IMG/VR virus record: IMGVR_UViG_3300029705_000041 | Strand: one strand, 5' to 3' | Length of the DNA: 64,000 nt | Source: a virus | Lineage: Duplodnaviria > Caudoviricetes | Shown: positions 2,833 to 25,341 of the stretch, in pieces | How the letters are laid out: each line of letters opens with the position of its first letter | Position numbering within the stretch: position 1 is the stretch's first letter | Notes under the pieces: model-generated | The model's input: the letters and a program-made list of their open reading frames with translations, nothing else | Told to the model about the DNA's origin: nothing | Database searches by the model: none | Translations under genes and position numbers: made by a program

Positions 2833-3500
2833 GTAAGAAAAGAGCTTTTACAGGATTAACTTTTAATTATGTCATTGACCAAGTGTTATTGAAAGCTAAA
2901 TTCAAAACAATAGAAGAATTTCTGGAGACTATTTTTCCAAAGAACAATAATCCTAAATCGCCAAATGATAATAGCGAAATATCAAACATTCGTTGGAAAA
3001 AATATCACATTGATACACGTGATAGTGTTAAAACGGTTGCTGATTTAAAGATTCTTTTAATTAATGAACCGGATGTGATAAATCCACCAAAGAAACCACC
3101 TAAAACTTTGCAGCTAATTCGCAAACAAAAATATTCTATTGAAGAAGTTAAAGAGACTGTAAAAGATGTTTTGTTTGAAACAGATGATAAAAAGGCACGA
3201 ATAGAATTTGACGGTGATTATATTAAAGGTAATAGTCAAAGATACCAAACATTCTTTACTGATGGAGTTAAATGTTCTTGTTGCGGTATAGAGGGTAAGT
3301 TCTTTGCAAAAGAAAGACATTCAACTTCAAAATGCTATCATTTAAACTTATATGCCGTTGATGATAATGGCATAGAAATCCTTATGACAAAAGACCACAT
3401 TATTCCAAAATCCAAGGGTGGGAAAAACCATTTGAGCAATTATCAAACAATGTGTTCAGTGTGTAACTCCCTTAAAGGAAATAGAATGGAGAATGAATAA
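2829..3500 (+). CDS. HNH endonuclease
   Basis: C-terminal TKDHIIPKSKGGKNHLSNYQTMCSVCN; upstream CSCC. Confidence 0.85.
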   Translation: MSKKRAFTGLTFNYVIDQVLLKAKFKTIEEFLETIFPKNNNPKSPNDNSEISNIRWKKYHIDTRDSVKTVADLKILLINEPDVINPPKKPPKTLQLIRKQKYSIEEVKETVKDVLFETDDKKARIEFDGDYIKGNSQRYQTFFTDGVKCSCCGIEGKFFAKERHSTSKCYHLNLYAVDDNGIEILMTKDHIIPKSKGGKNHLSNYQTMCSVCNSLKGNRMENE

Positions 3501-4813
3501 TGTATTGTGCTTATATAACAACAATTCGTGAACTAAGGAAACATAGTAATGCAGATAGATTGCAGTGTGCAACGATTTTTGGCAATAACGTCATAGTTGA
3601 TATGACATATAAATCGGGGGACAGAGTAATTTATTTTCCTGTTGACGGTCAACTTGGAAAAGAATTTGCAGATGATAATAATTTAGTTCGTAAAAAAGAT
3701 GCTGAAGGAAATAATATTGGTGGTTATTTAGACCCTAATAAAAGAAATATTACAGCTTTAAAATTACGTGGTGAACAATCAGATGGTTTAGTTTTGCCGA
3801 TAACTGTTTTAAGTAAATACATCAATGTAGACACTTTGACAGATGGAGAGCAAATAACAGTATTAAATGGATATGAAATTTGTAAAAAATACATTCCGGT
3901 TGGAAAACCACGTTCACATACATATACAACAAGTAAAACAAGAAAAAATAAAAAGGAAGAAAAACAAAAAATTACATATCCGTTTTTTGTAGAACACATA
4001 GACACTGCGCAACTTGCGTATAATCAGTCTGCATTTAAACCAGGAGATACTTGCTACATTACACTTAAAATGCATGGAACATCTGCTAGAACTATGAATG
4101 CAGTTGAGGTTACAAAAAGAAAAGCAAATCCGATTGCAAAAAAAGTTTTTAAAGTTAAAGACAAAGAAACAAGGCAATATAAGTGCGTAAGTGGAACAAG
4201 AAGAACCACGTTAAAAAATTATGATGGTGGTTGGTATGGTAGCAATGCATTTAGAGAAAAGTATCATGAATTCTTTAAAGAAAGACTCCCAAAAGGCGCA
4301 GAAATATTCTACGAAATTGTTGGCTGGATAAACGAAGATACAACAATAATGGGTAGATGTTCTAACAAGCTAATAAAAGATAAAGAATTTAGTAAGCAAT
4401 ATGGTGACGAAACTATTTTCTCTTATGGTTGCAATATTGGCGAAAGTGATTGTTATGTTTACAGAATGACACTAACAAATGAAGATGGCTTTGCCGTTGA
4501 GATTCCTTGGGAACAAGTATTGATAGAATGTGAAAAAATGGGAGTTAAATGTGTTCCTACATTTGAAAAATTCACATTTACAACTTGGGAAGATTTAATG
4601 GAAAGAGTTGAGAAATATTATGACGGTGCTGACCCTGTAGGCAAAAGTCATGTAAGAGAAGGTGTCGTTGTAAGAATTGATAACAGACCGAGTTTTACTG
4701 CTTATAAACATAAGAATTTCAGTTTCAAATGTTTAGAGGGAATTATCAAAGATACATCCGATGCTCCGGATATAGAAGAAGCAGAAGAACTCATTATAGA
4801 TGAAGTAATTTAA
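3500..4813 (+). CDS. RNA ligase (DRB0094/Rnl2-like, N-terminal tRNA-binding OB fold)
   Basis: HSNADRL and LRGEQSDGL OB motifs; ligase motifs I (KMHGTS), III (YEIVG), IV (EGVVVR) and V (KHK). Confidence 0.85.
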   Translation: MYCAYITTIRELRKHSNADRLQCATIFGNNVIVDMTYKSGDRVIYFPVDGQLGKEFADDNNLVRKKDAEGNNIGGYLDPNKRNITALKLRGEQSDGLVLPITVLSKYINVDTLTDGEQITVLNGYEICKKYIPVGKPRSHTYTTSKTRKNKKEEKQKITYPFFVEHIDTAQLAYNQSAFKPGDTCYITLKMHGTSARTMNAVEVTKRKANPIAKKVFKVKDKETRQYKCVSGTRRTTLKNYDGGWYGSNAFREKYHEFFKERLPKGAEIFYEIVGWINEDTTIMGRCSNKLIKDKEFSKQYGDETIFSYGCNIGESDCYVYRMTLTNEDGFAVEIPWEQVLIECEKMGVKCVPTFEKFTFTTWEDLMERVEKYYDGADPVGKSHVREGVVVRIDNRPSFTAYKHKNFSFKCLEGIIKDTSDAPDIEEAEELIIDEVI

Positions 4814-4814
4814 G

Positions 4815-5384
4815 GTGATACCAATGGTTATTGAAAATTTAGAAAATATCAATAAAGAATACAACTTAATCTATGCAGACCCACCCTGGAAACAATCTAA
4901 GGGTGGGAAGAAAAAGGTAAGAAGCAACAGTAGCGGAAAAGACTTGGATTATCCAACTTGTAGTTTAGACGAAATTGAAAGTCATCTAAAAGCTGTAAGT
5001 GATAATTCAGGGGGAAATAGTATTTTGTTTTTATGGACAATAGATAAATACTTATTTGAAGCACAAAGAATAGCTGAAAATCTTGGTTATAAACTTCATG
5101 CACGCATGATTTGGGATAAGGTTACAGGGATTCCGGCGGCTTTTACAGTAAGATATGGTCATGAGTATTTGCTCTATATGTATAAAGGAAAACTTCTTCC
5201 GGTTGCAAAGGAAGAAAGAGGCAAAATACATACGGTATTTCGGGAAAGAGTTACTAAACATAGTAAAAAACCTGAAATAGCATACGAAATTATTGAAAGA
5301 TTGTACCCTGATACTCAAAAGCTCGAAATGTATGCAAGGAACACAAGAGCAGGATGGGATTCATGGGGCAATGAAGTTGTGTAA
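4815..5384 (+). CDS. MT-A70 family N6-adenine methyltransferase
   Basis: YADPPW, LFLWT, HSKKP, LEMYAR and GWDSWGNE motifs; in-frame G5 at 5010-5014. Confidence 0.9.
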   Translation: MIPMVIENLENINKEYNLIYADPPWKQSKGGKKKVRSNSSGKDLDYPTCSLDEIESHLKAVSDNSGGNSILFLWTIDKYLFEAQRIAENLGYKLHARMIWDKVTGIPAAFTVRYGHEYLLYMYKGKLLPVAKEERGKIHTVFRERVTKHSKKPEIAYEIIERLYPDTQKLEMYARNTRAGWDSWGNEVV

Positions 5385-10550: not shown

Positions 10551-10687
10551 TAGTATTAAAAATATCCACACTATTAATTGTAATCGCAATTTCTCTTGTT
10601 GGCGGCTATTTAGCCGGAAGATATTTCTCTATTGTAGATTATTTTAGAAATAAAAAGAAAAAGAAAAATAATAGAGATGATTCTTAA
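10547..10687 (+). CDS. small single-pass membrane protein (46 aa, not in ORF track)
   Basis: MIVLKISTLLIVIAISLVGGYLAGR...; ATGA overlap with the upstream stop; basic C-terminal tail. Confidence 0.6.
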   Translation: MIVLKISTLLIVIAISLVGGYLAGRYFSIVDYFRNKKKKKNNRDDS

Positions 10688-10705
10688 ACAAAAGGGTGAT
10701 TAGCT

Positions 10706-11809
10706 ATTAATAACATTGCAATAATTGATGCCGATTTAATTGGCAAAAAGAATCATAGATTTCCTAATTTAGCTTGCATGAAATTAAGCGCTTATCACAA
10801 AGAAAATGGAGATAAAGTTTGTTTGTTGTTAGAATATAAAAATATTGAACAATATGATAAAGTTTATATTTCCAAGGTTTTTACAGATACTACTGTGCCT
10901 TCAGAAGTATTACAAATGAAGAATGTACAATATGGAGGCACAGGTTTCTTCTATGATAAAGCTCCGGCTCTTTCGGGGGATATTGAGCATCATATGCCTG
11001 ACTATCATTTATATGATGAATGGGTAAATGAACAAATTTCAAATGGTGTCAATCGTAACAATTTTAAATATTATTTGGATTATTCAATAGGTTTTATGAC
11101 AAGAGGTTGTTTTAGACAATGTGAATTCTGTGTCAACAAAAATTATAAAAAAGTTAATGTACATAGTCCATTACAAGAATTTGTTGATAATTCAAGAAAA
11201 AAGATTTGTTTGTTGGATGATAATTTTCTGGGTTGTCCGCAATGGAAAGTTATGCTTAAAGAACTTCAAGCAACAAACAAACCATTTCAATTTAAACAAG
11301 GTTTAGATGAAAGATTGTTGACTGACGAAAAATGTGAAATTTTATTCAAAAGTAAATATGATGGAGATTATATTTTCGCTTTTGATAACATTGCAGATTA
11401 TGACCTTATTGAAAAGAAGTTGATGTTGTTACGAAAGTACACCAATCGAATGCCGAAATTTTATACTTTGTGTGCATTTGACAGAAGTAATAAATGGGAT
11501 ATAGAGTTTTGGAAACAAGATTTGTGGGATTTGTTTAAAAGAATTGAATTACTTATGCGCTATAAATGTTTGCCATATGTAATGCGGTTCAATAGATATG
11601 AAGAATCTCCGTATAGAGGAACATATATAAATGTTGCTGCCTGGTGTAATCAACCAAATGCTTTTAAAAAGAAATCATATAGAGAATTTGTTGAATATCA
11701 GCAATCACGTCACAAAAAAGAATGTGCCGAGACAAGATATTTAAAAATGGTTGAAAATGATATTCCGGAGTTAGCAGAAAAATATTTTAACATGAAATAT
11801 GAGGAATAA
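10706..11809 (+). CDS. radical SAM protein (phage family, probable DNA-modification role); likely ATT start
   Basis: CxxxCxxC (CFRQCEFC), DDNF, FAFD; the frame is open upstream of ATG 10778 and reads NNIAIIDADLIGKKNHRFPNLAC; GGGTGA SD before ATT 10706. Confidence 0.8.
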   Translation: MNNIAIIDADLIGKKNHRFPNLACMKLSAYHKENGDKVCLLLEYKNIEQYDKVYISKVFTDTTVPSEVLQMKNVQYGGTGFFYDKAPALSGDIEHHMPDYHLYDEWVNEQISNGVNRNNFKYYLDYSIGFMTRGCFRQCEFCVNKNYKKVNVHSPLQEFVDNSRKKICLLDDNFLGCPQWKVMLKELQATNKPFQFKQGLDERLLTDEKCEILFKSKYDGDYIFAFDNIADYDLIEKKLMLLRKYTNRMPKFYTLCAFDRSNKWDIEFWKQDLWDLFKRIELLMRYKCLPYVMRFNRYEESPYRGTYINVAAWCNQPNAFKKKSYREFVEYQQSRHKKECAETRYLKMVENDIPELAEKYFNMKYEE

Positions 11810-11812
11810 TAA

Positions 11813-12013
11813 ATGGAAGTAATTAAAGAACCGTCTTGCGTGGTTAAGTGTCCACAATGCAATTGTGAGTTTAAATTTGGAAAAGAAGATATTTATAATG
11901 CAACCGGCGGATGCAGAAAGGGCAACCCAATAAACCCTCATAAAGCTGTTCATTGTCCGTTTTGTGATACAAAAATAGCAATATGGGGAACAGATAAGAA
12001 AGTGAGAAGTTGA
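11813..12013 (+). CDS. small zinc-ribbon protein
   Basis: CPQC and CPFC; GAGG SD. Confidence 0.6.
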   Translation: MEVIKEPSCVVKCPQCNCEFKFGKEDIYNATGGCRKGNPINPHKAVHCPFCDTKIAIWGTDKKVRS

Positions 12014-12016
12014 AAA

Positions 12017-13051
12017 ATGATAAAAAGTGGTAATAAAATCAGTGTTTTATCATCAGCAAACAGAGGTTTAAGAAGTATGCTGGGAATTCGTGAAGATGCA
12101 TCAAATTTCAAAAATCCAGCAATTACTGTATTAGTAGGATTGCCAGCAAGCGGAAAATCTACAATTGCTGAAAAACTTGAAAATAAAAACACAGTCATTC
12201 ATTCATCTGATAAATTAAGAGAAGAATTATATGGCGATGAAAACACCCAGGAACATAATGCAGACTTATTTGTTGAGTTGCACAGAAGAATAAAAGAAGA
12301 TTTAAGAAATGGTAAAAATGTAATTTATGATGCAACCAACATTAATAAGAAACGAAGAATTGCTTTTCTTGGAGAATTAAAAAATATACCATGCAAAAAA
12401 GTATGTATATGTATGATGACACCATATGAATTATGTTTAAAATACAATTCTTCAAGAGAAAGAAAAGTTCCGGAAGAAGTAATAAAAAGAATGTATATGA
12501 ATTGGAATCCACCATCAATGCAAGAGGGTTTTGACGAGATACATTATCATTATAACTACGGTGAAAACCATGAAACCGTTAAATATAGATACAGATTAAC
12601 TACATTATTTGAGGGAGATTGTGGAATTGATAATTTTCCACAGGAAAATAGCCATCACACATTAACTCTTGGAATGCATTGTAGGCAAGCAAATGAGTAT
12701 GTAGTAGAGCATTTTCCTTCAGAAAGATTATTACATATTGCAACACTTTTGCACGATAACGGTAAAGTCTTTACTAAAACTAAATTAAATGCAAAAGGTG
12801 AAGAAGATGGCGAATGTCATTATTATCAACATCATTGTGTAGGAGCTTATGACTCATTATTTTACACTAATGAGATGAAATTAAGTGAAGAAGATAAGAC
12901 ATATATCGCTAATTTAATATACTTTCATATGCATCCCTTTACATCCTGGCACCAATCCAAAAGTGTTGAAAGACGAAATAAAATTCAAATTGGCGATGAA
13001 ATGTATGATGATATAATGCGTTTACATGAAGCTGATTTAGCTGCACATTAG
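12017..13051 (+). CDS. polynucleotide kinase fused to an HD phosphohydrolase (RNA end healing)
   Basis: GLPASGKST, SSDKLR and DATN kinase motifs; C-terminal H...LHDNGK...H...HM...D HD domain. Confidence 0.82.
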   Translation: MIKSGNKISVLSSANRGLRSMLGIREDASNFKNPAITVLVGLPASGKSTIAEKLENKNTVIHSSDKLREELYGDENTQEHNADLFVELHRRIKEDLRNGKNVIYDATNINKKRRIAFLGELKNIPCKKVCICMMTPYELCLKYNSSRERKVPEEVIKRMYMNWNPPSMQEGFDEIHYHYNYGENHETVKYRYRLTTLFEGDCGIDNFPQENSHHTLTLGMHCRQANEYVVEHFPSERLLHIATLLHDNGKVFTKTKLNAKGEEDGECHYYQHHCVGAYDSLFYTNEMKLSEEDKTYIANLIYFHMHPFTSWHQSKSVERRNKIQIGDEMYDDIMRLHEADLAAH

Positions 13052-13064
13052 GAGTTTTTTGTAA

Positions 13065-13559
13065 TTGTTAAAGTATTACATAGTTACAGAACAAAGCAAA
13101 GTTTTTGAACAATACTGGAAGTATGATTCAACACTTAAATGCATTCAGAAAGCTTTTGGCAGCTTTGCAGATGAGCATGATATAAAGGCTAATAAGTTTC
13201 ATACATTAGCAGACCGATTATACATTGTGCCAGAAAAAGAGGATATTGAAAGATTTAGTCAAGACTTTGTGAAAAATAATGTAGGAATGTTCAAGAAGAA
13301 AACACTTCTTTCTAATAAATGGATTGAGAAGTGTAAAGCTGAAGGAATAAAAACTCCTAATAAACCATTTATTCCATTTGTTTTCAATTGTGCAGACCGA
13401 TGTTTGTGGCGATTGTTCGATGTTGATAGTGTTATTTATTGTACATTTGAAAGTGAAGCAAAATTTGTTGCACCTAAAGGATTTCAGGAAATAGATGAAA
13501 AAGAGTTTTATTCGATTATGGAATCTCATAATGTTGAAATTTTAAAGGAGATATATTGA
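13065..13559 (+). CDS. hypothetical protein
   Basis: 164-aa ORF with AGGAG SD. Confidence 0.6.
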   Translation: MLKYYIVTEQSKVFEQYWKYDSTLKCIQKAFGSFADEHDIKANKFHTLADRLYIVPEKEDIERFSQDFVKNNVGMFKKKTLLSNKWIEKCKAEGIKTPNKPFIPFVFNCADRCLWRLFDVDSVIYCTFESEAKFVAPKGFQEIDEKEFYSIMESHNVEILKEIY

Positions 13560-14316
13560 TGAGATATATTGCAAGTTGTAGTTTCGGTAAAGACTCTCTT
13601 GCAATGGTTCTCCGCCTGATTGAAGAATGTAAACCACTTGATGAGGTTGTATTTTATGATACCGGAATGGAATTCGGTGCAATATATAATAATCTCAAAA
13701 AATTAAAAAACATTCTTGCTGAAAAGAATATTAAGTTAGTGATACTAAAACCAGAAGTAAGTTTTGAATATAAAGCTTTTGAAATTCCGGTAAAGAGCAG
13801 GAAAGGTCAAGGTTATCATTACGGCTATTCTTGGTGCGGGGGTGTTGTAGATGGGGAACTACCGATAAAATAAGAATTGTTGATAAATATTGTGAAAGTG
13901 AACCAACAAAAGTATATGTTGGTATTGCCATAGATGAACCTAAGAGAATAGAAAAGGAAAGAAAACCTTATAAAATATTTCCTTTGGTTGAATGGGGTAT
14001 GACGGAAAAAGATTGTTTGGAATACTGCCGCAATAACGGATGGGATTGGAAAGAAGAAACTCCAAATGGATATATTGACCTTTATGACATCTTAGACCGT
14101 GTTAGTTGCTGGTGTTGTTCAAATAAAAATCGTAAAGAGCTTAAAAATATTTATCTATATTTACCGTACTATTGGAATAAGTTAAAAGAATTTCAATCAA
14201 AAACTGAAAGACCTATGAAAAAATATTCTAAAAAAGGTATTTTATATGGAAATGTTTTTGATATGGAGAAAATATTTGAAATAGAAACAAAAAGAGAAAA
14301 AGGAAGCGTAATATGA
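13556..14316 (+). pseudogene. PAPS-reductase/DndC-like protein, frameshifted at G5 13838-13842
   Basis: N-half has SFGKDS and YSWCGG; C-half in the -1 frame has CRWGT, VGIAIDE and RVSCWCC; one extra G gives a single 253-aa ORF. Confidence 0.85.
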
Positions 14317-15172
14317 ATTATAAAAATCCATTCAATTATATTGGAGCAAAATTCAAGCTATTACCACAAATACTTCCTTTATTTCCTTCGCAAATCCAAA
14401 ATTTCATTGATTTGTTCGGGGGAGTGGCGAAGTTGCATTCAATGTAAATGCTCAAAAAGTTATTTACAATGAAAAAAGTGTTGCGATGGTTAATATGTTT
14501 GAATGTTTTGATGATAATTTTGTTAAAGAAGTTGAAGAAGTAATTTCAAAATGGAATCTTTCAAAAAATAACAAGGTAGAATTTTTAAAGCTAAGAGAAT
14601 ATTATAATGATAATCTTGATACTTTGTCGAATAGAGAAAAAGCTGTAATTCTATATTGTTTATTAACTCATGCGTTTAACTATCAAATTGCATTTAACTC
14701 TAAGGGCGAATATAATATGCCTTCAGGAGCCGGCAGGAGTTATTTTAGTCCACAATTAAAAAATAAATTAATTGACTACATAGCAAGAAAAAATGAAATA
14801 AATATAGTTTTTCAGAATAACGATTTCTGCGATATGGACATAAATAATCTTCCAGCAGCTAAAAACACTTTTATATATGCTGACCCACCTTATCTTATCA
14901 CTACAGGTGCTTATGAAAGAGATTATTTCTGTAAATGGTCAGAAGAATATGAGATTAAATTACTTGATTTTTTAGATAAACTTAATGATAAAGGTTATAG
15001 ATTTGCACTATCAAATGTTTTGGAACATAAAGGAAAATCAAATAATTTACTTAAAGATTGGTCAAAGAAATACATAACTCACTTTTTGAACAAGGATTAC
15101 AAAAATTGTAATTATCAGACAAAAGATAAGAGTGCCAATAGTAGTGTAGAAGTTTTGATTACAAATTATTAA
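14313..15172 (+). pseudogene. Dam-like (D12 class) DNA adenine methyltransferase, frameshifted at G5 14418-14422
   Basis: ATG 14313 reads MNYKNPFNYIGAKFKLL...FIDLFGG, then stops at 14445; the -1 frame continues SGEVAFNV...DPPY...EVLITNY; one extra G gives 286 aa. Confidence 0.88.
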
Positions 15173-15260
15173 TTAAAATAACACTTTTAGCGTTTCTAAT
15201 CGCTGCCAGATATGCTTTAAGTGATGACATAGATATTCTAAAAGAAAGGAAAAGACTGTT

Positions 15261-15533
15261 ATGCATTATTTCAAATTTGGCGAAGCTATTGAAAATTTAA
15301 AGAATGGCAAAGCTATGTCTCGACAGGGTTGGAATGGTAAAAATGCCTATATTTATTATATTCCGGCTAATAACTACAATGCTGAAACAGAAGTTGCTAA
15401 AGCAGAATTTGGTGATAAAGTTCCTTATGGTGCTTATATTGCCATGAAAACAACGCAAGGGAATGTTGTTCCTTGGGTAGCTTCACAAACAGATATTTTA
15501 GCAGAAGATTGGTTTATTGTCGATAAGAAATAA
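15261..15533 (+). CDS. tad2: Thoeris anti-defence Tad2-like protein (DUF2829)
   Basis: FGEAIENLKNG..SRQGWNGK ... PWVASQTDILAEDW signature. Confidence 0.82.
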   Translation: MHYFKFGEAIENLKNGKAMSRQGWNGKNAYIYYIPANNYNAETEVAKAEFGDKVPYGAYIAMKTTQGNVVPWVASQTDILAEDWFIVDKK

Positions 15534-15543
15534 GACAGAAAAA
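15528..15543 (+). promoter_or_regulatory. repeated motif AAATAAGACAGAAAAA upstream of the sak-ssb-replication genes
   Basis: Exact copy of the 16-mer, immediately before the SD of sak. Confidence 0.6.
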
Positions 15544-15563
15544 TTATTGAAAGGAGAATTATT

Positions 15564-16196
15564 TTGGCAGAAAAAAATATTTTTGAATCCCTTAATAATG
15601 TGGATTTAACAGAAAAAGTAAAATCAAAAAATAATCTTACATACTTACCATGGAGTTCTGCATGGTCAGAAGTAAAAAGACGTTATCCAGATGCAAATTT
15701 CAGAATTATTCCACAGGTAATTGATGAAGGTGGAAATACACGTCCTTGGCATGATGATGGTAAAACAGGTTGGGTAGAAGTAGGGGTTACAATTGACGGT
15801 CAGGAAATTATTGAAACTCTTGCAATTATGGACTTCAAGAATAAGTCTATTACAGCCGACCAGATTACATCTGTTGATGCAAATAAGTCAATTAAGCGTT
15901 GTCTGGTAAAAGCTTGTGCTATGCATGGTCTCGGCTTGTACATTTACGAGGGCGAAGAATTGCCGGAAGAAGCATCAAAGACATTAGAATTGCAGGATGA
16001 AATTAAAGAATTGATTTCTAAAAAATGTGCGCTTTCTGATAAAGCAAAAAGTAAAGTTGCTGATTTATGTAAGGCGGCAGAAAAAGAAGCTGACCCAACT
16101 TTAGATGATGATGCAATTACAGGCAATCCTAAGAATATCGAAGATGTTGACATCTTAACTAATTTAAAAAAGCAGCTTTTGGCTGTTAGAAAATAA
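15564..16196 (+). CDS. Sak/Rad52-like single-strand annealing protein (DUF1071)
   Basis: LTYLPWSSAW and KRCLVKACAMHGLGLYIYEGE. Confidence 0.85.
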   Translation: MAEKNIFESLNNVDLTEKVKSKNNLTYLPWSSAWSEVKRRYPDANFRIIPQVIDEGGNTRPWHDDGKTGWVEVGVTIDGQEIIETLAIMDFKNKSITADQITSVDANKSIKRCLVKACAMHGLGLYIYEGEELPEEASKTLELQDEIKELISKKCALSDKAKSKVADLCKAAEKEADPTLDDDAITGNPKNIEDVDILTNLKKQLLAVRK

Positions 16197-16215
16197 GAAA
16201 AGGAGACTATTTATT

Positions 16216-16611
16216 ATGGGTTTTAGACAAGGTGCATACGCAAAAGTATGGAAGGTAGAAGATAAAGGAAATTATTCCGTAGCACAGATTAGTGTTAGTA
16301 AAAAGGATAAAGAAACTGGAGAATACAATGTTGAATTCCAGGATGGATTTGTTCGTTTGGTAGGTAACGCTCATGAGGCTGCTAAGAATTTGCAGATTAC
16401 TGATAATGGTGCTTCAATCCAGATTACTTCTTGCGATGTAACAAATAAATATGACGGAGAAAAGCAGAAGTCTTATATCAACTTTACAATTTTCGGATTT
16501 GATATTCCTGATGGAAATAACACTTCAAAGCCGGCTAAAAACACAGGTAAGAGTAGTAAAGCTGCACCAGCTACAGATAACGGTGCTGACGAAGATGACC
16601 TTCCGTTTTAA
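16216..16611 (+). CDS. ssb: single-stranded DNA-binding protein
   Basis: OB-fold size, acidic tail DEDDLPF, follows sak. Confidence 0.8.
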   Translation: MGFRQGAYAKVWKVEDKGNYSVAQISVSKKDKETGEYNVEFQDGFVRLVGNAHEAAKNLQITDNGASIQITSCDVTNKYDGEKQKSYINFTIFGFDIPDGNNTSKPAKNTGKSSKAAPATDNGADEDDLPF

Positions 16612-16624
16612 TTAGGAGGTCAAC

Positions 16625-17242
16625 ATGATAGAACAGACAAACATAGAAAAATTTGAACAATACTTAAACAGTATTGAACGAGAGGGTATTGATAAGTTAA
16701 TTGAGTTTATAAAAAAATCAGATTTTTATACAGCTCCGGCAAGTACATGTTACCATTCTTGTCATCAAGGCGGTTTGTTAGAACATAGTTTGAATGTTCT
16801 TGAATGTCTTTTGAAAAAATTCGACAATCCTGTTTGGTCTGAAATATTGAATGAGGTTGGGCGTGAGAGCGCTATTCTTTGCGCCCTGCTTCATGATATT
16901 TGTAAGAGTTATTATTATGGTATTGAAGAAAAAAATAAAAAGATATATAGCGAATACGGCAAAAAAGTTGACAAAAAAGGTAGATTTGATTGGGAAACAG
17001 TTGATACCTTTGTTGTAGATGATAAATTTCCATATGGTCATGGTGAGAAATCAGTTATGATGATTGAGGAATTTATTAAATTAAAACCAGTTGAAAGATA
17101 TTCTATCAGATGGCATATGGGATTTACCGAACCAAAAGAAAATTGGGGTACATTAGGATTAGCAATTAAAAAATATCCTTTAATTTTAGCACTCCATGAA
17201 GCTGATTTAGAATCAACATATTTACTTGAAAAGGAAGAATAA
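16625..17242 (+). CDS. HD-domain phosphohydrolase
   Basis: APAS..YH..GGLLEHSLNV, LLHDICK, GHGEKS, RWHMG, LHEAD. Confidence 0.85.
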   Translation: MIEQTNIEKFEQYLNSIEREGIDKLIEFIKKSDFYTAPASTCYHSCHQGGLLEHSLNVLECLLKKFDNPVWSEILNEVGRESAILCALLHDICKSYYYGIEEKNKKIYSEYGKKVDKKGRFDWETVDTFVVDDKFPYGHGEKSVMMIEEFIKLKPVERYSIRWHMGFTEPKENWGTLGLAIKKYPLILALHEADLESTYLLEKEE

Positions 17243-17245
17243 GAC

Positions 17246-17728
17246 ATGACAAAAAAAGCTGATACAAGAGTGTGTAGATACCCACATTGCAAACATGATG
17301 ACAAAACTATAAATTTAACCTCTGACAAATATGTGAAAGATGGCAGTTCTTATTATCATGAGGAATGTTATAAAAACAAATCCAATATTCAACTGATTAA
17401 AAATTTGTGGCATGACCACATTAGTTCTACGGTTGTATATTCTCAATTAATGAACATTCTTAATCAGCTTATTTTTAAGGATAATATTTCTTCTGATTAT
17501 ATCGTGTTTGTCATGCAATATTGCATTGACAATCAGAGAAAACTGCGCTATCCACCAGGTTTAAGATATTGTGTTGATGACCAGGTAATAAAAGATGCAT
17601 ATAACAAAAAAATGCAACCTATTATCCACCATTCGGATTTTTCTGCCGATAACGTAGAAGATGATTCACCTAAATTTACCATCAACAAAAAACCAGCTGG
17701 ATTTAAGAGCATATTAGGAGGTAAATAA
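17246..17728 (+). CDS. hypothetical replication-associated protein (Cys/His N-terminus)
   Basis: CRYPHCKH...YHEEC; coupled to the helicase gene. Confidence 0.55.
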   Translation: MTKKADTRVCRYPHCKHDDKTINLTSDKYVKDGSSYYHEECYKNKSNIQLIKNLWHDHISSTVVYSQLMNILNQLIFKDNISSDYIVFVMQYCIDNQRKLRYPPGLRYCVDDQVIKDAYNKKMQPIIHHSDFSADNVEDDSPKFTINKKPAGFKSILGGK

Positions 17729-19071
17729 TGGATATTGCGGAACTTTCCGATATTCAGTCAGAAAGCGGAGTAATCGGTACATTAATTTATCATCCGGAAT
17801 TTATTTTGCATACTGATTATCTCCAACCAGGATATTTTTTCGGAGTAGAAAATGGTTGTATTTATTGGGCTATTCAAGAGTTGTATAAGAGCGGAATTAC
17901 TAATATTGATGCGTATAACATTTCTAATAAATTACAGAGTAATAAATCGGTTCAGAAAACTATTGAAAAATACAATTTACCTTCAGTACAAGAATTTATT
18001 GAATTGTATAAAGAAACAGCCAGACACACAATGGAAGAATATAAAATGCTCGCCGATAACATTGTAACCCTAGCTTTTAAGAGAGATTTGGTAAAAACTC
18101 TAAATCAATTATCAGCTAATTGTTTTAATCCGGATTACGAACTTGAAAAGTTAAACAATGTTGTGTATGGAGAGCTTGATAAATTAACTCAAAAATACAT
18201 CTCCACAAATGATATACATATTTTAGGAAATGATATTGATGCGATTTGGAATGAAATTATAAATCGAAGAACTTCTGATGGTATGTATGGAATTCCTTCA
18301 AAATACAAATTATTTTCAGATTATTATACATATGAACCAGGAGAGTTAGTAGTTATTCAGGCAAAATATAAACAAGGCAAATCGGTTTTATTAATGAATG
18401 AGGTTGTTCACAAATTGAAAAATGGTGTTCCAACATTAGTCGTTGATAGTGAAATGCCTACTCGTTTATATACAGAGAGGTTAATATCTCATTTGTCTGG
18501 TATAGAGATGAAAAGAATCAAAAATGGTAATTATTCAGAAGAAGAAGGAAAAATAATAAATAATTGGATTTTATGGTTAAAAGAACAACCATTTGTTCAT
18601 ATATACAATCCAAACTTAACAAACGAAAAGTTATATTCGATTTGTAAAATGTTAAAACATAAAATCGGACTTACTTTTGTTGTTTATGATTATTTAAAAA
18701 GCAATGAAACTTCTTCAAGTGATAACTACAATGTGCTAGGAGCAAAATGCGACTTTTTAAAAAATAACATTGCTGGAGAACTTGATTTAGCTGTATTAGC
18801 AGCCTGTCAGTTAAATAGAAATGGTGAAGTTGCAGATAGTATAAAAATTAACCGTTATTTATCAGTCGGAATTAAATGGGAATATAAGACACAAGAAATG
18901 ATTGCAAAAGATGGAATTAAATGTGGAAATGCTTTTGCAAAAATATATGTAAATCGTTTAGGTAGACAAATGTTGGAAGATGACGATGAAGATTATATTG
19001 ACTTTATTTTTGATGGTGACAAAATGACGATAATTGAAGCACAGCAGCACGAAAGAGCAAGTGATTTTTAA
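17728..19071 (+). CDS. dnaB: replicative DnaB-like helicase
   Basis: SESGVIG N-terminus, Walker A AKYKQGKS, DSEM, Walker B VVYDYL, CQLNR. Confidence 0.85.
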   Translation: MDIAELSDIQSESGVIGTLIYHPEFILHTDYLQPGYFFGVENGCIYWAIQELYKSGITNIDAYNISNKLQSNKSVQKTIEKYNLPSVQEFIELYKETARHTMEEYKMLADNIVTLAFKRDLVKTLNQLSANCFNPDYELEKLNNVVYGELDKLTQKYISTNDIHILGNDIDAIWNEIINRRTSDGMYGIPSKYKLFSDYYTYEPGELVVIQAKYKQGKSVLLMNEVVHKLKNGVPTLVVDSEMPTRLYTERLISHLSGIEMKRIKNGNYSEEEGKIINNWILWLKEQPFVHIYNPNLTNEKLYSICKMLKHKIGLTFVVYDYLKSNETSSSDNYNVLGAKCDFLKNNIAGELDLAVLAACQLNRNGEVADSIKINRYLSVGIKWEYKTQEMIAKDGIKCGNAFAKIYVNRLGRQMLEDDDEDYIDFIFDGDKMTIIEAQQHERASDF

Positions 19072-19083
19072 ATAAGATAGGGA

Positions 19084-20100
19084 GTGCATATCTTGGAAAT
19101 TTACGATGATGATATGTTACAGCAAATTAATGAGAATGCAAACCTATTAGATTATGTCAGCCAATTTATTGAGATGGAGAAAAGAGGAAACGATTACTTT
19201 GGTCAATGTCCATTACATATAGACAACACACCCTCTTTCTCCATCACGCCAGCTAAAAACTCTTACTATTGTTTTTCTTGCGGCAAATCTGGTGGGATAA
19301 TTGGCTATTTAATGGATTATGAAGGAATGCAATTTGAAAGTGCTGTAGAAAAAGCCGCAAAATTAGCTGATATGGATTTGAGTAAAATGTGCAAATCAAA
19401 TACTGTATCGTGGTTGAAAAAATTACGAATGTTGGCTCTTAAAAAGGATAATGATTTTAGTCATGAAATCCTTCCAGAAAGTGAACTGAAAAAATACAAA
19501 AAAGAACCGGTATGGGAATGGCTAAATGAAGATATAAGTCAGGAAACAATGGATTTATTCGGCGTTATGGTTGATACATGGCAAAATCGAATCATTTATC
19601 CGGTATATGACATTCATGGTAATTTAATAAACATTAAAGCGAGAACTCGTTATCCTAATTACAAAAAATTAAAAATCCCTAAGTACATCAACTATTATCC
19701 TGTAGGAGTAATGGACTATTTTCAAGGATTGAATATAACGTTGAAGTATGTAAAAGAAAAGGGAGAAATTATCATTTTTGAATCTGTGAAATCAGTAATG
19801 AAAGCATTTGGTTGGGGCTATAAAAATTGCGCATCTGCTGAAAAACATACTTTAACAAAAGAACAGCTTGATTTATTAGTAAAACTAAAAGTTAATGTTG
19901 TTTTTGCTTATGATAGTGATATAAGCTATCGACAAAGTGATGTTAAACAGAACATTGATAAATTAAAACGTGTAACAAACGTGTATATAATTGAAGATAA
20001 AAATAAACTTCTTGGCGGTGTAGCAGCGAAGAATGCTCCGGTTGATTGCGGTGAGGATATTTGGAGTCAGCTATATGAAGCTAAAAAGAAAATAGTTTAG
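19084..20100 (+). CDS. dnaG: DNA primase (CHC2 zinc finger + TOPRIM)
   Basis: CPLH.DNTPSF...YCFSC; IIFE and YDSD TOPRIM motifs. Confidence 0.85.
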   Translation: MHILEIYDDDMLQQINENANLLDYVSQFIEMEKRGNDYFGQCPLHIDNTPSFSITPAKNSYYCFSCGKSGGIIGYLMDYEGMQFESAVEKAAKLADMDLSKMCKSNTVSWLKKLRMLALKKDNDFSHEILPESELKKYKKEPVWEWLNEDISQETMDLFGVMVDTWQNRIIYPVYDIHGNLINIKARTRYPNYKKLKIPKYINYYPVGVMDYFQGLNITLKYVKEKGEIIIFESVKSVMKAFGWGYKNCASAEKHTLTKEQLDLLVKLKVNVVFAYDSDISYRQSDVKQNIDKLKRVTNVYIIEDKNKLLGGVAAKNAPVDCGEDIWSQLYEAKKKIV

Positions 20101-20123
20101 TAACGAAGTCAAGGAGTGGTTAT

Positions 20124-20930
20124 TTGAGTGAATATAAAGAAAGTATTGACAAAATGCGTTGGTCATATTCCAGACTAACATCATTTGAGCATTGTCAATA
20201 TGAATTTTATTTAAACTATATCATCAATAATGATGATGAATATTTATCTGAAGGAAATTTTTATGCAGAAGTCGGAATATTTGTCCACGAAGTTTTAGCA
20301 AAAATTTTCAACGGAGAATTAACTCCTGATGAAGCATCTCAATATTATGTAGATAACTTTGAAAAAAATATATTCTATAAAGTTAAAAAATCAACAATGG
20401 ATAAAACTTTTGAATTATGTGCTGATTACTTTGCCAATGTAGATTTTGGTTGGTTGAACAATTATGAAATCCTTGGAGTTGAACTCGAAATGGAATTCAA
20501 AATAGAAGGCTATGATTTTGTTGGTTATATTGATTTGCTTTTAAAGGATAAAAGAGATGGTAAGATTGTGATTATAGACCATAAAAGCGCACCTTACCCT
20601 TTAAAATTAGATGGAACTGTAAAAAAGAATTCACAAGCAAGTTTTGAAATGTATAAAAAACAAATGTATTTGTATTCGTATGCAGTAAAAGAAAAGTATG
20701 GCGTTTTTCCTAAAGAAATAATCTGGAATCATTTTAAAGCTGAAGGTAAATTTGTAACAATTCCTTTCATCGAAAAAGAATATGATGAAGCAGTTAAATG
20801 GCTTACACAAACTATACATAAAGTAGAAAATGAAAAAGATTTCAAACCCACTTTAGATTATTTTTACTGCACCAATCTTTGTAATTTCAGAAATTGTTGT
20901 GAATATTGTAAAGATTCAGACTGGCGGTGA
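20124..20930 (+). CDS. PD-(D/E)XK exonuclease (RecB/Cas4-like)
   Basis: WSYSRL..FEHC, GYIDLL, IIDHK, QMYLY, C-terminal Cys cluster. Confidence 0.85.
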   Translation: MSEYKESIDKMRWSYSRLTSFEHCQYEFYLNYIINNDDEYLSEGNFYAEVGIFVHEVLAKIFNGELTPDEASQYYVDNFEKNIFYKVKKSTMDKTFELCADYFANVDFGWLNNYEILGVELEMEFKIEGYDFVGYIDLLLKDKRDGKIVIIDHKSAPYPLKLDGTVKKNSQASFEMYKKQMYLYSYAVKEKYGVFPKEIIWNHFKAEGKFVTIPFIEKEYDEAVKWLTQTIHKVENEKDFKPTLDYFYCTNLCNFRNCCEYCKDSDWR

Positions 20931-23900
20931 AATTATTGCAAATACCAAACACATATGTTCCGTATCATGTTCACAGTATGTTGAGCAGTGGTACAACAAA
21001 CATAGATAGTATTACAAATTTCAGAGACTATGTTAATGCGGCTCAAAACAACGGTATGAATGCTCTTGGAATTAGCGAACATGGCAACTTGTTTGAATGG
21101 CTGCATAAAAAGGAATGTATTGAAGCTGCCGGAATGAAGTATTTGCATTGTGTTGAAGCTTATCTTACAGAGGATAACGGCGAAAAAGTAATTTATAATG
21201 CCGTAGAGTTAGTACATGATAGGCGAATTGAATTTGAAAAATATAGACAAAGAGAAGATGGAGGTTATCTTGCAGAAGTAGATGGTATATCATATCTAAT
21301 TGATATAGATACATTAAAAAAAGAGTATGTAAAAACCAGAGACAATTACCATTGTGTTTTAATTGCAAAAAATTATGATGGTGTAAAAGAGTTGAATCGT
21401 CTGGTATCTAAATCATTCTGTAGAGATGACTTCCATTTCTACTATATGCCGAGAATTTCATTTGATGAATTATTCAAAACATCCTCAAACATTATTATTA
21501 CTACAGCTTGTTTGGGTGGAGTTTTAAACAATGGAACTCCTATTGCAAAAGAAAAGATGTTAGGTTTTTTAAAACAAAATAAAAACCGTTGTTTTTTAGA
21601 AATACAACATCATAATTGCAAAGAACAAATTGAATATAATAAAGTTTTGTATGAATTAAGTAAAGACACAGGAATACCTCTTATTGCCGGCACCGATACA
21701 CACGCACTTAATGAAGAACACATGGATGGTCGTGCAATGTTACAAAAAGCAAAAAATGTACGATTTTCCAATGAAGATGATTGGGACTTAACGTTTAAGA
21801 CAACAGAAGAATTAATAGCAGCATATAAAAAACAAAATTCATTACCTATGGATGTTGTATATGAGGCGATTAACAATACAGTTAAAATGGCAGAGATGGT
21901 TGAAACATTTAAGCTTGATTATAGTCCTAAATATCCAAAACTATATGAAGATTCTGAAAGTGTGTTCAAACAAAAAATAAATAAAGGTGTTCTCAATAGG
22001 AACATTATGCAATATCCAAATTATCAAGAATATTTGGATAGAATTCATTATGAATATGATACATATAAGCATAACAACGCTATTGATTTTATGCTTTTAG
22101 AAGAAGATTACAAAACAGAAATGCGTAATCGAAATGTTAAATTTGGTTATAGTAGAGGTTCTGTTTCCGGAAGTATCATAGCATATCTTTTAGGTATTAC
22201 AGAAGTTGATAGTGTAAAGTTCAAATTAAACTTTGAGCGTTTCATGAATAAAGAAAGAGTAAGCCTTGCCGATATTGATACGGATTGGTTATCAGAAGAT
22301 AGAAAAACTGTTAAAGATTACTTATATAGTAAAACAGGACTATATTGTTGTGATATTGTTACTTTTAACACAATAGCCCTCAAAGGTGCTATTCGTGATA
22401 TAGGTAGAGCATTAGAAATACCTTTGAATGAGGTTGCAGAAATTTGCGATGCCGTTGAAACCAATGAAGAAGCATTACGAAGGCAATATAAAACACTGTT
22501 TAAATATGTTGATTTGGTAAACGGAGTAGTAGTTTCTGTAGGAAATCATCCTGCTGGATGCGTTATTTCGCCTTTTCCAGTTGATGAATGGTTTGGAACT
22601 TTTACAACAACCACTGATGAGTACCCAATATCTGTACTTAACATGAAAGAAATTGACTCTTTAAATTTCGTTAAGCTTGACATTTTGGGACTTGATAATA
22701 TTGGATTAATATATAAAACGTGTGATTTAGCAGGAATACCATTTTTAACACCAGATAATACTCCGGCTGACGATATGGAAGTGTGGGAGAGTATTAGGGA
22801 AGATACTACTATGATTTTTCAATGGGAATCACAAAGTGCAACCTCTTATTTAAAACAATTATTCAGTGATACAACTATTGAACAGATAAGAGCTAAAAAC
22901 CCTGATTTCTCATATATGGATTTACTCTCAATAGGTAATGGTGCTATTCGCCCAGCAGGAGAATCTTATAGAGATAAACTTGCACAAGGTATATATCAAG
23001 ATAACGGTCATAAAGCATTAAATGATTTCTTAGCATCAACTTTAGGTTATCTGGTATATCAAGAACAAATCATAGAATTTTTACATATATTCTGTGGATA
23101 TACAATGGGAGAGGCAGATGTTGTAAGACGAGGTTTTGCAAAGAAAACTGGAACAGAAAAATTTATACCTAAAATTAAGAGTGGTTTTTCTGAAACTATG
23201 CAGAAGAAATTTAGTGTTGCTGAAAAAGAATCAGAAAAGCTAATAGTAAATTTCATAAAGGTTATAGAAGATGCAAGTTCATATTTGTTTTCAAAAAATC
23301 ACGCAGACCCTTATTCATGGATAGGATATATTTGTGGTTATCTTAGATACCATTATCCACTTGAATTTATTACTACAGCTTTAAATATCTTTGAGGGAAA
23401 AGAAGAAAAAAGTCTGGCTATAATTAATTATGCAAAAAAACAAGGAATAAAAATTTCGCCGATTAAATTCAGATATTCAATAGCTCAATATAACTTTAAT
23501 AAAGACACAAACGAAATTTATAAAGGTATTTCTTCTATTAAATTTATGAATGCAAATGTCGCTGATGAAATTTATTCTTTGCGTGAAAACCAATACAGAA
23601 ATTTTATTGAATTGATATATGACTTAAAAAATAAGACATCAATAAATTCACGCCAATTAAAAATTCTTATTGAGCTTGATTTCTTTTCAGAATTTGGAGA
23701 TACAAATTATCTGTTAGGGTTATATGATTTATTTGATGCACTTGATGGCAAAGTACAATTCAAAAAAGAAAAACTAGCGGAAATGGGTATTCCAGAAGAT
23801 ATGATTAGATTATTCGCTGAAAAGGAAACTGATAAAATGTTTACAAAAGTAAATACAAAAGGTTTCTTAGAATATGCTGCAAAGCAAGCAAAATATAATC

Positions 23901-24238
23901 ACAGAACTCTCAAAGAAAAAATCCATGCACAAATTAATCACCTTGGGTATGTGGATATTATAGATGATTGTTATGCAGGAATGGCAGCTGTATTATCGGT
24001 AGACACAAAATTTGCTCCAAAATTGAAAATGTACTCTTTGAAAAACGGAACAGTTATTGATTGCAAAATTGATAAAAGGAGTTTTGCGAAAAACAAGCTA
24101 CAATCCGGAGATATAGTAAGAATACATGGACAAAGAAAAAAGCCAAAATTAAAACGGTTAGAAAATGGTCAATATGAACCGATTCCAGGAGTAGATGAAT
24201 TATGGATAACCGGTTATACAAAGGTGGAGAATATGTAA
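20927..24238 (+). CDS. dnaE: DNA polymerase III alpha subunit (family C)
   Basis: PHP motifs HVHS and SEHG; RGSVSGS, FERF, ADIDTD, KLDILGL, YQEQ, FSKNHA. Confidence 0.95.
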   Translation: MKLLQIPNTYVPYHVHSMLSSGTTNIDSITNFRDYVNAAQNNGMNALGISEHGNLFEWLHKKECIEAAGMKYLHCVEAYLTEDNGEKVIYNAVELVHDRRIEFEKYRQREDGGYLAEVDGISYLIDIDTLKKEYVKTRDNYHCVLIAKNYDGVKELNRLVSKSFCRDDFHFYYMPRISFDELFKTSSNIIITTACLGGVLNNGTPIAKEKMLGFLKQNKNRCFLEIQHHNCKEQIEYNKVLYELSKDTGIPLIAGTDTHALNEEHMDGRAMLQKAKNVRFSNEDDWDLTFKTTEELIAAYKKQNSLPMDVVYEAINNTVKMAEMVETFKLDYSPKYPKLYEDSESVFKQKINKGVLNRNIMQYPNYQEYLDRIHYEYDTYKHNNAIDFMLLEEDYKTEMRNRNVKFGYSRGSVSGSIIAYLLGITEVDSVKFKLNFERFMNKERVSLADIDTDWLSEDRKTVKDYLYSKTGLYCCDIVTFNTIALKGAIRDIGRALEIPLNEVAEICDAVETNEEALRRQYKTLFKYVDLVNGVVVSVGNHPAGCVISPFPVDEWFGTFTTTTDEYPISVLNMKEIDSLNFVKLDILGLDNIGLIYKTCDLAGIPFLTPDNTPADDMEVWESIREDTTMIFQWESQSATSYLKQLFSDTTIEQIRAKNPDFSYMDLLSIGNGAIRPAGESYRDKLAQGIYQDNGHKALNDFLASTLGYLVYQEQIIEFLHIFCGYTMGEADVVRRGFAKKTGTEKFIPKIKSGFSETMQKKFSVAEKESEKLIVNFIKVIEDASSYLFSKNHADPYSWIGYICGYLRYHYPLEFITTALNIFEGKEEKSLAIINYAKKQGIKISPIKFRYSIAQYNFNKDTNEIYKGISSIKFMNANVADEIYSLRENQYRNFIELIYDLKNKTSINSRQLKILIELDFFSEFGDTNYLLGLYDLFDALDGKVQFKKEKLAEMGIPEDMIRLFAEKETDKMFTKVNTKGFLEYAAKQAKYNHRTLKEKIHAQINHLGYVDIIDDCYAGMAAVLSVDTKFAPKLKMYSLKNGTVIDCKIDKRSFAKNKLQSGDIVRIHGQRKKPKLKRLENGQYEPIPGVDELWITGYTKVENM

Positions 24239-24239
24239 A

Positions 24240-24581
24240 ATGAAAAACGAAAAATTTCTAATTACCTTTGAAGAATTTGAAAATCATATTAAAAGTATTG
24301 AACGACTAATTAATTTTGAGAACGGATTACGTTGTTTAATACATTCTTATAAAAAGAATAACGAAGAAATAATTGAATTATCCTTTCCAACACTAATGAC
24401 CAATACAATTCAATTACTTGCAACTCTAACACAAGATGTTAATGATTGGATTAGTTATTGGGTTTTTGACTTAGAGTGTGGAACTAAATACAAAGATGGC
24501 TGTGTTAAGGATGTAAATAATAATGACATTCCTTTAAAAACCATCAAAGATTTATGGGATATTTTAAATATGGAGGAATAA
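24240..24581 (+). CDS. hypothetical phage protein
   Basis: 113-aa ORF with DWISYWVFDLECG. Confidence 0.6.
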   Translation: MKNEKFLITFEEFENHIKSIERLINFENGLRCLIHSYKKNNEEIIELSFPTLMTNTIQLLATLTQDVNDWISYWVFDLECGTKYKDGCVKDVNNNDIPLKTIKDLWDILNMEE

Positions 24582-24586
24582 GAGAA

Positions 24587-25341
24587 TTGAAATATATTGC
24601 AAATTGCAGTTTTGGAAAAGATTCTCTTGCTCAAATTATAAAAATTAAAGAATTAGGTTTGCCTTTGGATGAGGTCATATATTGTGATATACGTTTCTCC
24701 CCCTGATAAGTGGAGAACACCCTTTAATGGCAGAATGGATTCCTTGTGCGGAAGAAATTCTGGAGAAACAATTCGGAATAAAAGTCAAACATATATCGGC
24801 AAAAACTACTTTTACAGAGCAGTTTTATAAAGTAAAACAAAAAGGAAAACATATCGGAGAAATATATGGTTTCCCATATACTATAGGTGCCTGGTGTAAT
24901 AGTCGATTAAAAGTTAATCCTTTATCACAATATATTTCATCCATAAACGATGAGGTATATCAATACATAGGTATTGCTTATGATGAGCCGGAACGCTATC
25001 AGAGACTAAAACAACAAGAAACGCCAAAGGTCAAATATGGTTCTGTTTTATATGAAAATCAAATAACAGAACCTATGGCTTTTGAAATATGTGAAAAATA
25101 TAATTTAGTTTCTCCAATTTATTCAGACGAAGTGTACCGTGGTGGATGCTGGTTTTGTGTAAAACAATGTTACGCTGACTTATATAAATTATGGAAAGAA
25201 TATCCTGACTATTTTAATATGTTACTAGAAATGGAAAAGGATTCTTCGATAACGTTTAAACCTAATTATACTTTAAAAGAATTTGTAGAGAAGTTTGAGA
25301 ACGGATATATTCCAAAAAGGCGAAAAACAAGTAAAAAATAA
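24587..25341 (+). pseudogene. second PAPS-reductase/DndC-like protein, frameshifted at C5 24699-24703
   Basis: TTG 24587 after GGAGG reads MKYIANCSFGKDS...RFSP, then TGA 24704; the -1 frame continues LISGEHP...WCNSRLK...GIAYDE...RGGCWFC; one extra C gives 251 aa. Confidence 0.85.

Follow-up and report, generated by a model that had tools for sequence, protein, structure and literature searches.

Short G/C tracts in three split genes of an uncultured gut phage are probable on/off switches

The 64,000-nucleotide stretch analyzed here (the window) belongs to the IMG/VR virus record IMGVR_UViG_3300029705_000041 (Duplodnaviria; Caudoviricetes), has a GC content of 32%, and carries three genes that are each interrupted at a run of five G or five C: two PAPS-reductase-like genes (PAPS1 and PAPS2) and a Dam-like DNA methyltransferase gene (Table 1). 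At all three runs the upstream frame stops within 0 to 9 codons and the rest of the gene lies in the -1 frame, so that one added base restores the gene; we call the restored state ON and the interrupted states OFF. Each gene has this single lesion between two long open halves. The original prediction, made from the sequence alone, had described each gene as split and one base short, with restored open reading frames (ORFs) of 253, 286, and 251 amino acids. Runs and frames were confirmed at these positions, as were the lengths of the Dam-like and PAPS2 products, and PAPS1 comes to 252 residues (253 counts from a TTG at 13556). The prediction had also noticed no other frameshifted gene, which was borne out by a scan for homopolymer frame junctions over the 94-kb record containing the window, in which no further broken gene was found.

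In PAPS1 the shift leads from frame 2 to frame 1, and the restored reading, WCGG-CCRWGTTDK, matches the WCGGxCRWGTT motif of 75 of 78 relatives; gene callers predict a single 252-residue ORF in two same-species contigs, L328 and L329. The Dam-like gene shifts from frame 0 to frame 2, the G run encoding the two glycines of the restored motif I, and the restored length is 35 + 2 + 249 = 286 amino acids. Both parts match the PF02086 profile (24.8 and 67.7 bits; cut-off 22), restoration yields DLFGGSG (FxGxG), and DPPY is present; the restored protein is predicted to be a member of the D12-class N6-adenine DNA methyltransferase family. In PAPS2 the shift is from frame 2 to frame 1, at "tcc ccc tga," and the ON allele P0121 reads through the TGA. 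C6 relatives encode 262 amino acids from an upstream start, or 251 from the TTG chosen in the original prediction.

Table 1. Coordinates of the broken genes, their tracts, and other features (window positions unless a contig or record is named)
Feature	Position	Strand	Remarks
PAPS1, N-terminal part	13559..13873	+	SFGKDS PP-loop; PF01507, 31.6 bits; phrog_424; premature stop after G5
PAPS1 G5 tract, OFF; G6 restores frame	13838..13842	+	G5 in window and L324; G6 in L328 and L329
PAPS1, C-terminal part, -1 frame	13843..14316	+	phrog_424; CRWGTT and CWCC cysteine motifs; aligned to intact relatives
Dam-like (D12 class) methyltransferase, N-terminal part to motif I	14313..14447	+	PF02086 profile positions 1-30
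Dam G5 tract within motif I DLFGG(S)G, OFF; G6 ON, G7 OFF	14418..14422	+	Tract lengths in relatives
Dam-like methyltransferase, C-terminal 249 codons, -1 frame	14423..15172	+	PF02086 positions 68-248; DPPY motif
PAPS2, N-terminal part	24587..24706	+	SFGKDS; TGA directly after C5
PAPS2 C5 tract, OFF; C6 restores frame	24699..24703	+	C5 in window and L329; C6 in L332
PAPS2, C-terminal part, -1 frame	24703..25341	+	phrog_424
RNA-ligase-like gene	3500..4813	+	PF09414; in-frame G5 at 3616-3620, control tract
MT-A70 adenine methyltransferase	4815..5384	+	PF05063; in-frame G5 at 5010-5014, ON in window
Radical-SAM-like gene	10778..11809	+	phrog_9298; in-frame G5 at 10975-10979
Tad2-like (Thoeris anti-defence 2) protein	15261-15533	+	PF11195, E = 2e-26; directly 3' of Dam-like gene
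Multi-TRD C5-methylase	L308:12784-14460 (G001); L323 + L316 = G003:153900-156001 and 1-1700		

The window holds nine G5 runs and one C5 run, no G/C run of six or more, 25 A7/T7 runs, and three A8/T8 runs. The earlier estimate of about ten G5/C5 runs, five of them in a small class made up of the three broken genes and the MT-A70 and radical-SAM genes (both of whose runs are in frame, as had been said), is matched by an exact count of ten, with five in the class. These five genes make up 6.2% of the window, and their share of the runs corresponds to a binomial p of 1.8e-4 for a class defined post hoc.

Tract lengths were compared with those of contigs of the same species that come from five other samples and share 97.8 to 99.8% identity with the window; the way to these contigs led through a large protein collection, and 28.7 kb could be aligned. 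The window is OFF at all three loci (G5, G5, and C5). L324 (99.83% identical) has PAPS1 OFF at G5 and Dam OFF at G7, and L328 (97.8% identical) has both genes ON at G6, its PAPS1 being an ORF of 252 amino acids with PF01507; PAPS2 lies outside both contigs. L329, a 349-kb contig (99.4%/98.7% identical over 19 kb), combines PAPS1 ON at G6 with Dam OFF at G5 and PAPS2 OFF at C5. Dam alone is covered by L330 (99.1% identical), where it is OFF at G5, and PAPS2 alone by L332 (99.45% identical), where it is ON at C6 (P0121, 22 member sequences). In the order PAPS1/Dam/PAPS2, the combinations seen are thus OFF/OFF/OFF, ON/OFF/OFF, ON/ON/?, and OFF/OFF(G7)/?, so the three tracts change independently of one another and in both directions (5, 6, and 7).

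Among the same-species alignments there are six real indels in 28.7 kb, five of them at the three tracts and one at an intergenic T6/T5 run. Counted per run and contig, G/C5 runs changed in 5 of 11 cases, A/T runs of at least six in 1 of 110, A/T7 runs in 0 of 13, and G/C4 runs in 0 of 13; G/C5 differs from A/T of at least six with a Fisher p of 1.3e-5. The sole indel away from the tracts, T6 (window 13050-13055) versus T5 in L328, falls within the spacer that separates a GGAG ribosome-binding site from the 164-amino-acid gene starting at 13065.

Indel errors typically arise at homopolymers, and the data are metagenome consensus contigs, some of low coverage (L177, 3.6x). The true tracts might then all be G6/C6, with the shorter runs being G/C homopolymer miscalls, a caveat that the original prediction had itself raised. 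The same tract states recur, however, in independent samples and assemblies (SPAdes-style NODE, k141, Logan, and JGI [Joint Genome Institute]), including a 125-kb contig, L192, at 11.7x coverage, and G6 and G7 runs exist in the same assemblies, so the runs were not collapsed. A/T7 runs did not change, as noted above. Nor did the control G5 runs (3616 and 5010) change in L329, where the MT-A70 run was matched and the alignment over window positions 1-6037 has no indel; the RNA-ligase run (3616-3620) is also kept in record G001. Moreover, errors would not be expected to cluster in three accessory genes. We consider a sequencing or assembly artefact most improbable.

Tract polymorphism extends to wider relatives of the Dam-like gene, which in IMG/VR fall into two groups. 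The closest of them, L003 and L004 (68 to 69% amino acid identity), share the out-of-frame G5 of the window, and pattern scans of IMG/VR and JGI metagenome DNA, which demanded a run of at least five G, added further G5 contigs, giving five Dam lineages in all. Searching the protein collection with the Dam C-terminal part returned many full-length proteins of 284 to 286 amino acids, along with 228-residue products corresponding to the OFF form and products of 255 to 277 residues, with N termini in the third frame, corresponding to the G7 form. In the species group of L004, G5, G6, and G7 occur among strains with 98.3 to 99.3% identical flanks, and many full-length alleles are present in the protein collection. 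In a sister Dam clade this motif contains a long tract, which is G8 and in frame at 14 loci and G7, G9, or G10 and out of frame at 9 loci, and 11 loci with interrupted codons are always in frame. In more distant lineages the gene is ON, with G6 in L325 and L326 and with GGGGGA-AGT in L327.

The PAPS2 relatives L041 and L042 (72% amino acid identity) are OFF at C5, with the same -1 break at the same spot, and more distant PAPS2 relatives are intact and have no tract. A pattern scan for PAPS1 gave at least 103 matches; all 80 loci examined have an in-frame G5 (TGTGGGGGAACA) and belong to another phage group, so they are uninformative for switching. No PAPS1 ortholog was found in records G001 to G005. 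Compared across relatives, as the original prediction had suggested, the tracts are neither uniformly G6/C6 nor fixed at five with further decay.

Purifying selection is strong on either side of the break in both Dam and PAPS2. The proportion of nonsynonymous differences (pN) in the two Dam halves is 0.08 to 0.30 against a saturated synonymous proportion (pS) of 0.49 to 0.91 across five lineages (0.17 to 0.30 against 0.69 to 0.87 for the C-terminal part among lineages), and in the two PAPS2 halves it is 0.10 to 0.16 against 0.69 to 0.75 between the window and L041/L042. The ratio of nonsynonymous to synonymous rates (dN/dS) covers Dam and PAPS2; the intactness of PAPS1 is judged from its single lesion. 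The tracts themselves use the rarest codons for their amino acids, GGG making up 3.1% of Gly codons and CCC 4.2% of Pro codons, and among Gly-Gly pairs in long ORFs GGG-GGA occurs once in 75. Because the runs nevertheless persist across lineages whose synonymous sites are saturated, they look as if they were maintained by selection. As a separate observation on sequence context, a C is much more frequent directly before runs of at least five G than before G3 or G4 runs (76% versus 2% for G4 and 13% for G3 in G001, 41% versus 15% in G003, and 25% versus 4% in G000, the 94-kb record). In these three records TTC-GGGGG and TGC-GGGGG are repeated contexts, met with in every reading phase.

These data bear on whether the three genes are plain pseudogenes, dispensable and under loss, in which G/C runs simply break first. 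All three are OFF in the window genome, Dam is OFF in four of five same-species contigs (the window counted), and the accessory region is deletion-prone, with 6 kb missing from L329 and a deletion within Dam in L127 and L168. Decay of this kind is nonetheless hard to reconcile with a single lesion per gene and two long open halves in a genome of 32% GC, with dN/dS far below 1 on both sides of the tract in lineages with saturated synonymous sites, with ON alleles persisting in the same species, or with rare-codon tracts that are retained rather than lost. Extra stops or indels beyond the tract, or a dN/dS near 1, were looked for in relatives and not found. We judge plain pseudogenes to be very unlikely.

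Broken G runs occur in other genes of this phage group as well. The homologous tract of the MT-A70 gene is G5 and ON in G001 and G6 and out of frame (OFF) in the relative G003, in line with an earlier flag on this run, and in G003 a DPPY methylase is split at a G5 run. A C5-cytosine methyltransferase with multiple target-recognition domains (TRDs) is cut into four to five frames in G001 and G003, and several of its module borders carry tracts of G5 to G7; one such site is in frame (G6) in G001 but out of frame (G5) in G003, and another is G5 and out of frame in both. For the radical-SAM tract there was no evidence of switching, the L003 ortholog having no tract at the site. In G001, a ClpP-like protease gene (L313:5963-6596, minus strand) and a SleB-like hydrolase gene (L315:9854-10565, plus strand) are each split at G6, and G5 would be in frame. 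Given these two genes, breaks at G runs extend beyond modification genes in this phage group. A PAPS-like gene of G001 (L003:1653-2776) is broken at a G5 run where removing a base, rather than adding one, would restore the frame; in it, an insertion of ~300 nucleotides repeats the YGFP...WC motif in diverged form and is followed by a further frame change.

A further possibility is that G5/C5 is the normal functional allele and that full-length protein arises by programmed recoding, through -1 ribosomal slippage or through slippage of RNA polymerase, with constitutive low-level expression. All three sites need the same -1 shift, a P-site tRNA could slip on G-GGN or C-CCC, and the re-pairings are allowed (GGA to GGG, GGT to GGG, and CCC to CCC before the TGA). 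The out-of-frame G5 is common to five Dam lineages saturated at synonymous sites, as the out-of-frame C5 of PAPS2 is to the window and L041, and the Dam run invariably follows a C, though the search pattern permitted T. In-frame G6/C6 alleles are common, however, in the same species and in other lineages, which makes ordinary translation the functional mode, and the seeming universality of G5 stems in part from the DNA pattern that demanded at least five G. In addition, G7 alleles exist that would need a +1 shift, and the PAPS-like gene of L003 and the ClpP-like and SleB-like genes of G001 call for the opposite shift. The runs lack a canonical X-XXY-YYZ heptamer, a search 3' of the Dam run found no conserved structure (-6.7 kcal/mol, 0 covarying pairs), and an efficient slip would harm the in-frame G5 runs of other genes. 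Recoding is thus an improbable explanation. We had considered a programmed -1 shift on account of the seemingly universal G5 (OFF) state across five lineages and dropped it when the protein collection showed many in-frame G6 alleles, which meant that the search for at least five G had been biased. Phage-encoded shifty tRNA-Gly or tRNA-Pro species were also considered and dropped, such tRNAs being present in G003 only and absent from G001 and the 94-kb record.

Tract polymorphism among near-identical phages, selection on the genes, and the existence of ON alleles together make assembly error, pseudogenes, and obligatory recoding unlikely. The most probable reading, to which we assign a probability of roughly 0.78, is that the three breaks are real DNA states of slippage-prone G/C tracts acting as contingency (phase-variable) loci. 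The loci combine a repeat within the coding sequence at the frame junction, an excess of length polymorphism, both ON and OFF alleles, and, for Dam and PAPS2, purifying selection. Strand slippage in replication would add or remove one G:C pair, with G6/C6 giving the full-length enzyme and G5/C5 or G7 giving truncation after 39 to 104 residues. Independent switching of three tracts would yield a population of phage or lysogens holding up to eight combinations, the window being the all-OFF one, and switching within one population may be fast and reversible. Shorter runs being presumably more stable, genes with a G6 ON state may rest mostly at G5, the commonest length. The benefit could lie in bet-hedging of nucleic-acid modification against host defences, possibly hedging between restriction and modification-dependent nucleases.

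Several points weigh against this interpretation. Tract lengths come from consensus assemblies, some of unknown or low coverage (that of the related-species contig L177 was given above), and both the rate of switching and the mixture of states within a population are conjectured from assembled contigs. An ON and an OFF allele of one gene were never seen together in one contig, and classical phase-variable tracts of bacteria are longer than G5/G6. A similar set of snapshots would result if mutational hot spots repeatedly lost function in one direction. What the switches are for is likewise surmised, and the phage lacks GATC, which calls self-methylation by the Dam-like enzyme into question.

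Slipped-strand mispairing is the established mechanism for runs of this type, and hypermutable polyG tracts are known in Campylobacter phages. The kind of system is already known, from bacterial phasevarions and from the contingency loci of phages T2 and T4. In phasevarions (Type III mod genes of Haemophilus, Neisseria, and Helicobacter; poly-G tracts of Campylobacter, PMC4889913), repeat slippage likewise switches a methyltransferase, and ON and OFF alleles coexist among near-identical genomes; those tracts, however, are G8 or more, or tetra- or pentanucleotide repeats, and are chromosomal, whereas those described here are 5 to 7 nucleotides long, phage-borne, and extend to non-methylase PP-loop enzymes. 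In T2 and T4, runs of at least 6 nucleotides, including one in the DNA-glucosylation gene agt, are reversible contingency loci that mutate at ~3e-4 and revert 1000 to 10000 times faster than point mutants (10.1101/2025.10.21.683753). The ON and OFF states of agt trade off between two restriction systems, and T4 rIIA is also a contingency locus (10.1101/2025.10.21.683753; Gomez, Barrick and Waters). T2 agt and T4 rIIA resemble our loci in their short in-gene mononucleotide runs, +/-1 frameshifts, and the involvement of a DNA-modification gene, and differ in that they are A runs of lytic coliphages in which switching was measured by experiment; the window phage has G/C tracts of 5 to 6 in rare codons at three loci of a temperate gut phage, with comparative evidence only. 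The original prediction had cautioned that 5- to 6-mers are short for phase variation, a reservation eased by the 6-nucleotide runs that act as contingency loci in T-even phages (10.1101/2025.10.21.683753).

What is new is that the tracts are so short, that three loci assort independently within a single temperate gut phage, and that PAPS-reductase-like genes are among them. If our interpretation is right, an uncultured temperate gut phage uses runs of just five or six G/C as natural on/off switches, in genes that annotation pipelines would drop as pseudogenes or "fix" as sequencing errors. It would also take phage contingency loci beyond laboratory coliphages, to the gut virome and to the widespread, uncharacterised phage family phrog_424 (PAPS-reductase-like).

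Both PAPS-like genes are predicted members of the PAPS-reductase/PP-loop ATP pyrophosphatase superfamily (PF01507, phrog_424), and their products are PP-loop enzymes with invariant cysteines. A search of NCBIfam and PDB sequences gave no finer family for these proteins and no match to the NCBIfam DndC family. The structure model of the PAPS2 ON allele P0121 (pLDDT 88) matches PAPS/APS reductases with a TM score of ~0.5 and a probability of 1.0 and resembles the [4Fe-4S] tRNA thiolases NcsA and TtuA about equally well. Phosphorothioate synthesis is described as requiring a P-loop nucleoside triphosphatase (NTPase) partner of the DndD/SspC/BrxC type, encoded beside the PAPS-reductase-domain protein (PMC12914056). 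None was found among the scanned neighboring genes, the nearest P-loop protein being a polynucleotide-kinase-like AAA_33 protein, and in this the PAPS-like genes differ from the phosphorothioation enzymes DndC, SspD, and BrxP. They sit, moreover, among tRNA- and RNA-repair genes. Since the fold is also thiolase-like, no NTPase partner was found, and the neighbors are of the tRNA/RNA-repair kind, a DNA-modifying role of the PAPS-like genes is no more than a supposition.

The closest solved structure to the restored Dam-like protein is T4 Dam (PDB 1yfj and 1q0s; E = 4e-44, full length, ~40% identity). Motif I (FxGxG) and DPPY are found in both proteins. They differ at the residues aligned to S112 and R116 of T4 Dam, which we take to be DNA-contact residues.

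Palindromes are strongly depleted from the phage genome. The 94-kb record has no GATC (252 expected), no GGCC (69), no GGNCC, 3 CGCG (34), and 1 GATATC (38), and the 6-mer palindromes AGTACT, ATCGAT, CTTAAG, GTATAC, and TTCGAA are all absent. G001 is alike (GATC 0, 536 expected), while in G003 it is CTAG that is nearly absent (1, 179 expected), with GATC at 56 (597 expected). With no GATC in the phage, a GATC-specific Dam has no target on phage DNA; if the enzyme is GATC-specific it would act on the host chromosome in lysogens, and otherwise its specificity would differ. The proposal of a phase-variable phage epigenome thus holds as regards varying tract lengths and the existence of both ON and OFF states; DNA modification by the PAPS-like enzymes is conjectural, and the label "phage epigenome" is not yet right, as a canonical GATC Dam could not mark DNA devoid of its site.

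It is tempting to speculate further that selected rare-codon G/C tracts in at least five to six nucleic-acid-modifying genes (Dam-like, MT-A70, multi-TRD C5-methylase, DPPY methylase, and two putative Fe-S PP-loop enzymes) form a combinatorial switchboard. With GATC, GGCC, and many other palindromes purged from the phage DNA, the switched enzymes would act mainly on the lysogen chromosome or on RNA, as a prophage-borne "phasevarion" that toggles the host epigenome and compatibility with methyl-dependent and methyl-sensitive defences. We regard this scheme as rather doubtful; if true, it would include the first phase-variable PAPS-reductase-like modification enzymes. Since GATC and GGCC are avoided completely, the switches offer a system in which to study the balance that a prophage under host restriction strikes between avoiding sites and switching modification.

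The window is part of a 94,283-bp record that is estimated to be 61% complete. Complete relatives of the phage measure 156 to 161 kb, and we estimate its full size at ~155 kb. The 99.4%-identical copy within the 349-kb contig L329 fits a temperate phage, and the window phage would accordingly fit a large temperate gut phage or prophage; metagenome-assembled genomes with relatives of window genes bear the names Lachnospiraceae and Roseburia. A search of GenBank phages gave no close relative, only local matches of 60 to 80% to T-even dam and to PAPS genes of C. difficile phages. Besides the three broken genes, the window encodes a CCA-adding enzyme, an RNA ligase, and a polynucleotide-kinase-like protein; the MT-A70 methylase, a P-type ATPase, three TerD proteins, the radical-SAM protein, and the Tad2-like protein; and Sak, DnaB, DnaG, Pol III alpha, and endolysins.

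The accessory region of the phage is prone to deletion. The near-identical prophage copy in L329 lacks ~6 kb (window 6037-12041), which removes most of the P-type ATPase gene, the three TerD genes, a PspA-like gene, the radical-SAM gene, and the start of a kinase gene. Protein P0024 is an MT-A70/Dam chimera, 96% identical over its Dam part, and implies a ~9.5-kb deletion in another contig; L127 and L168 have the internal Dam deletion mentioned above.

A reverse transcriptase gene (phrog_1423) adjoins tail-fibre genes (39737-40972, minus strand, with 39007-39744 and 49628-50998). It is likely to mark a diversity-generating retroelement, which, if true, would give this phage another means of diversification, distinct from the tracts.

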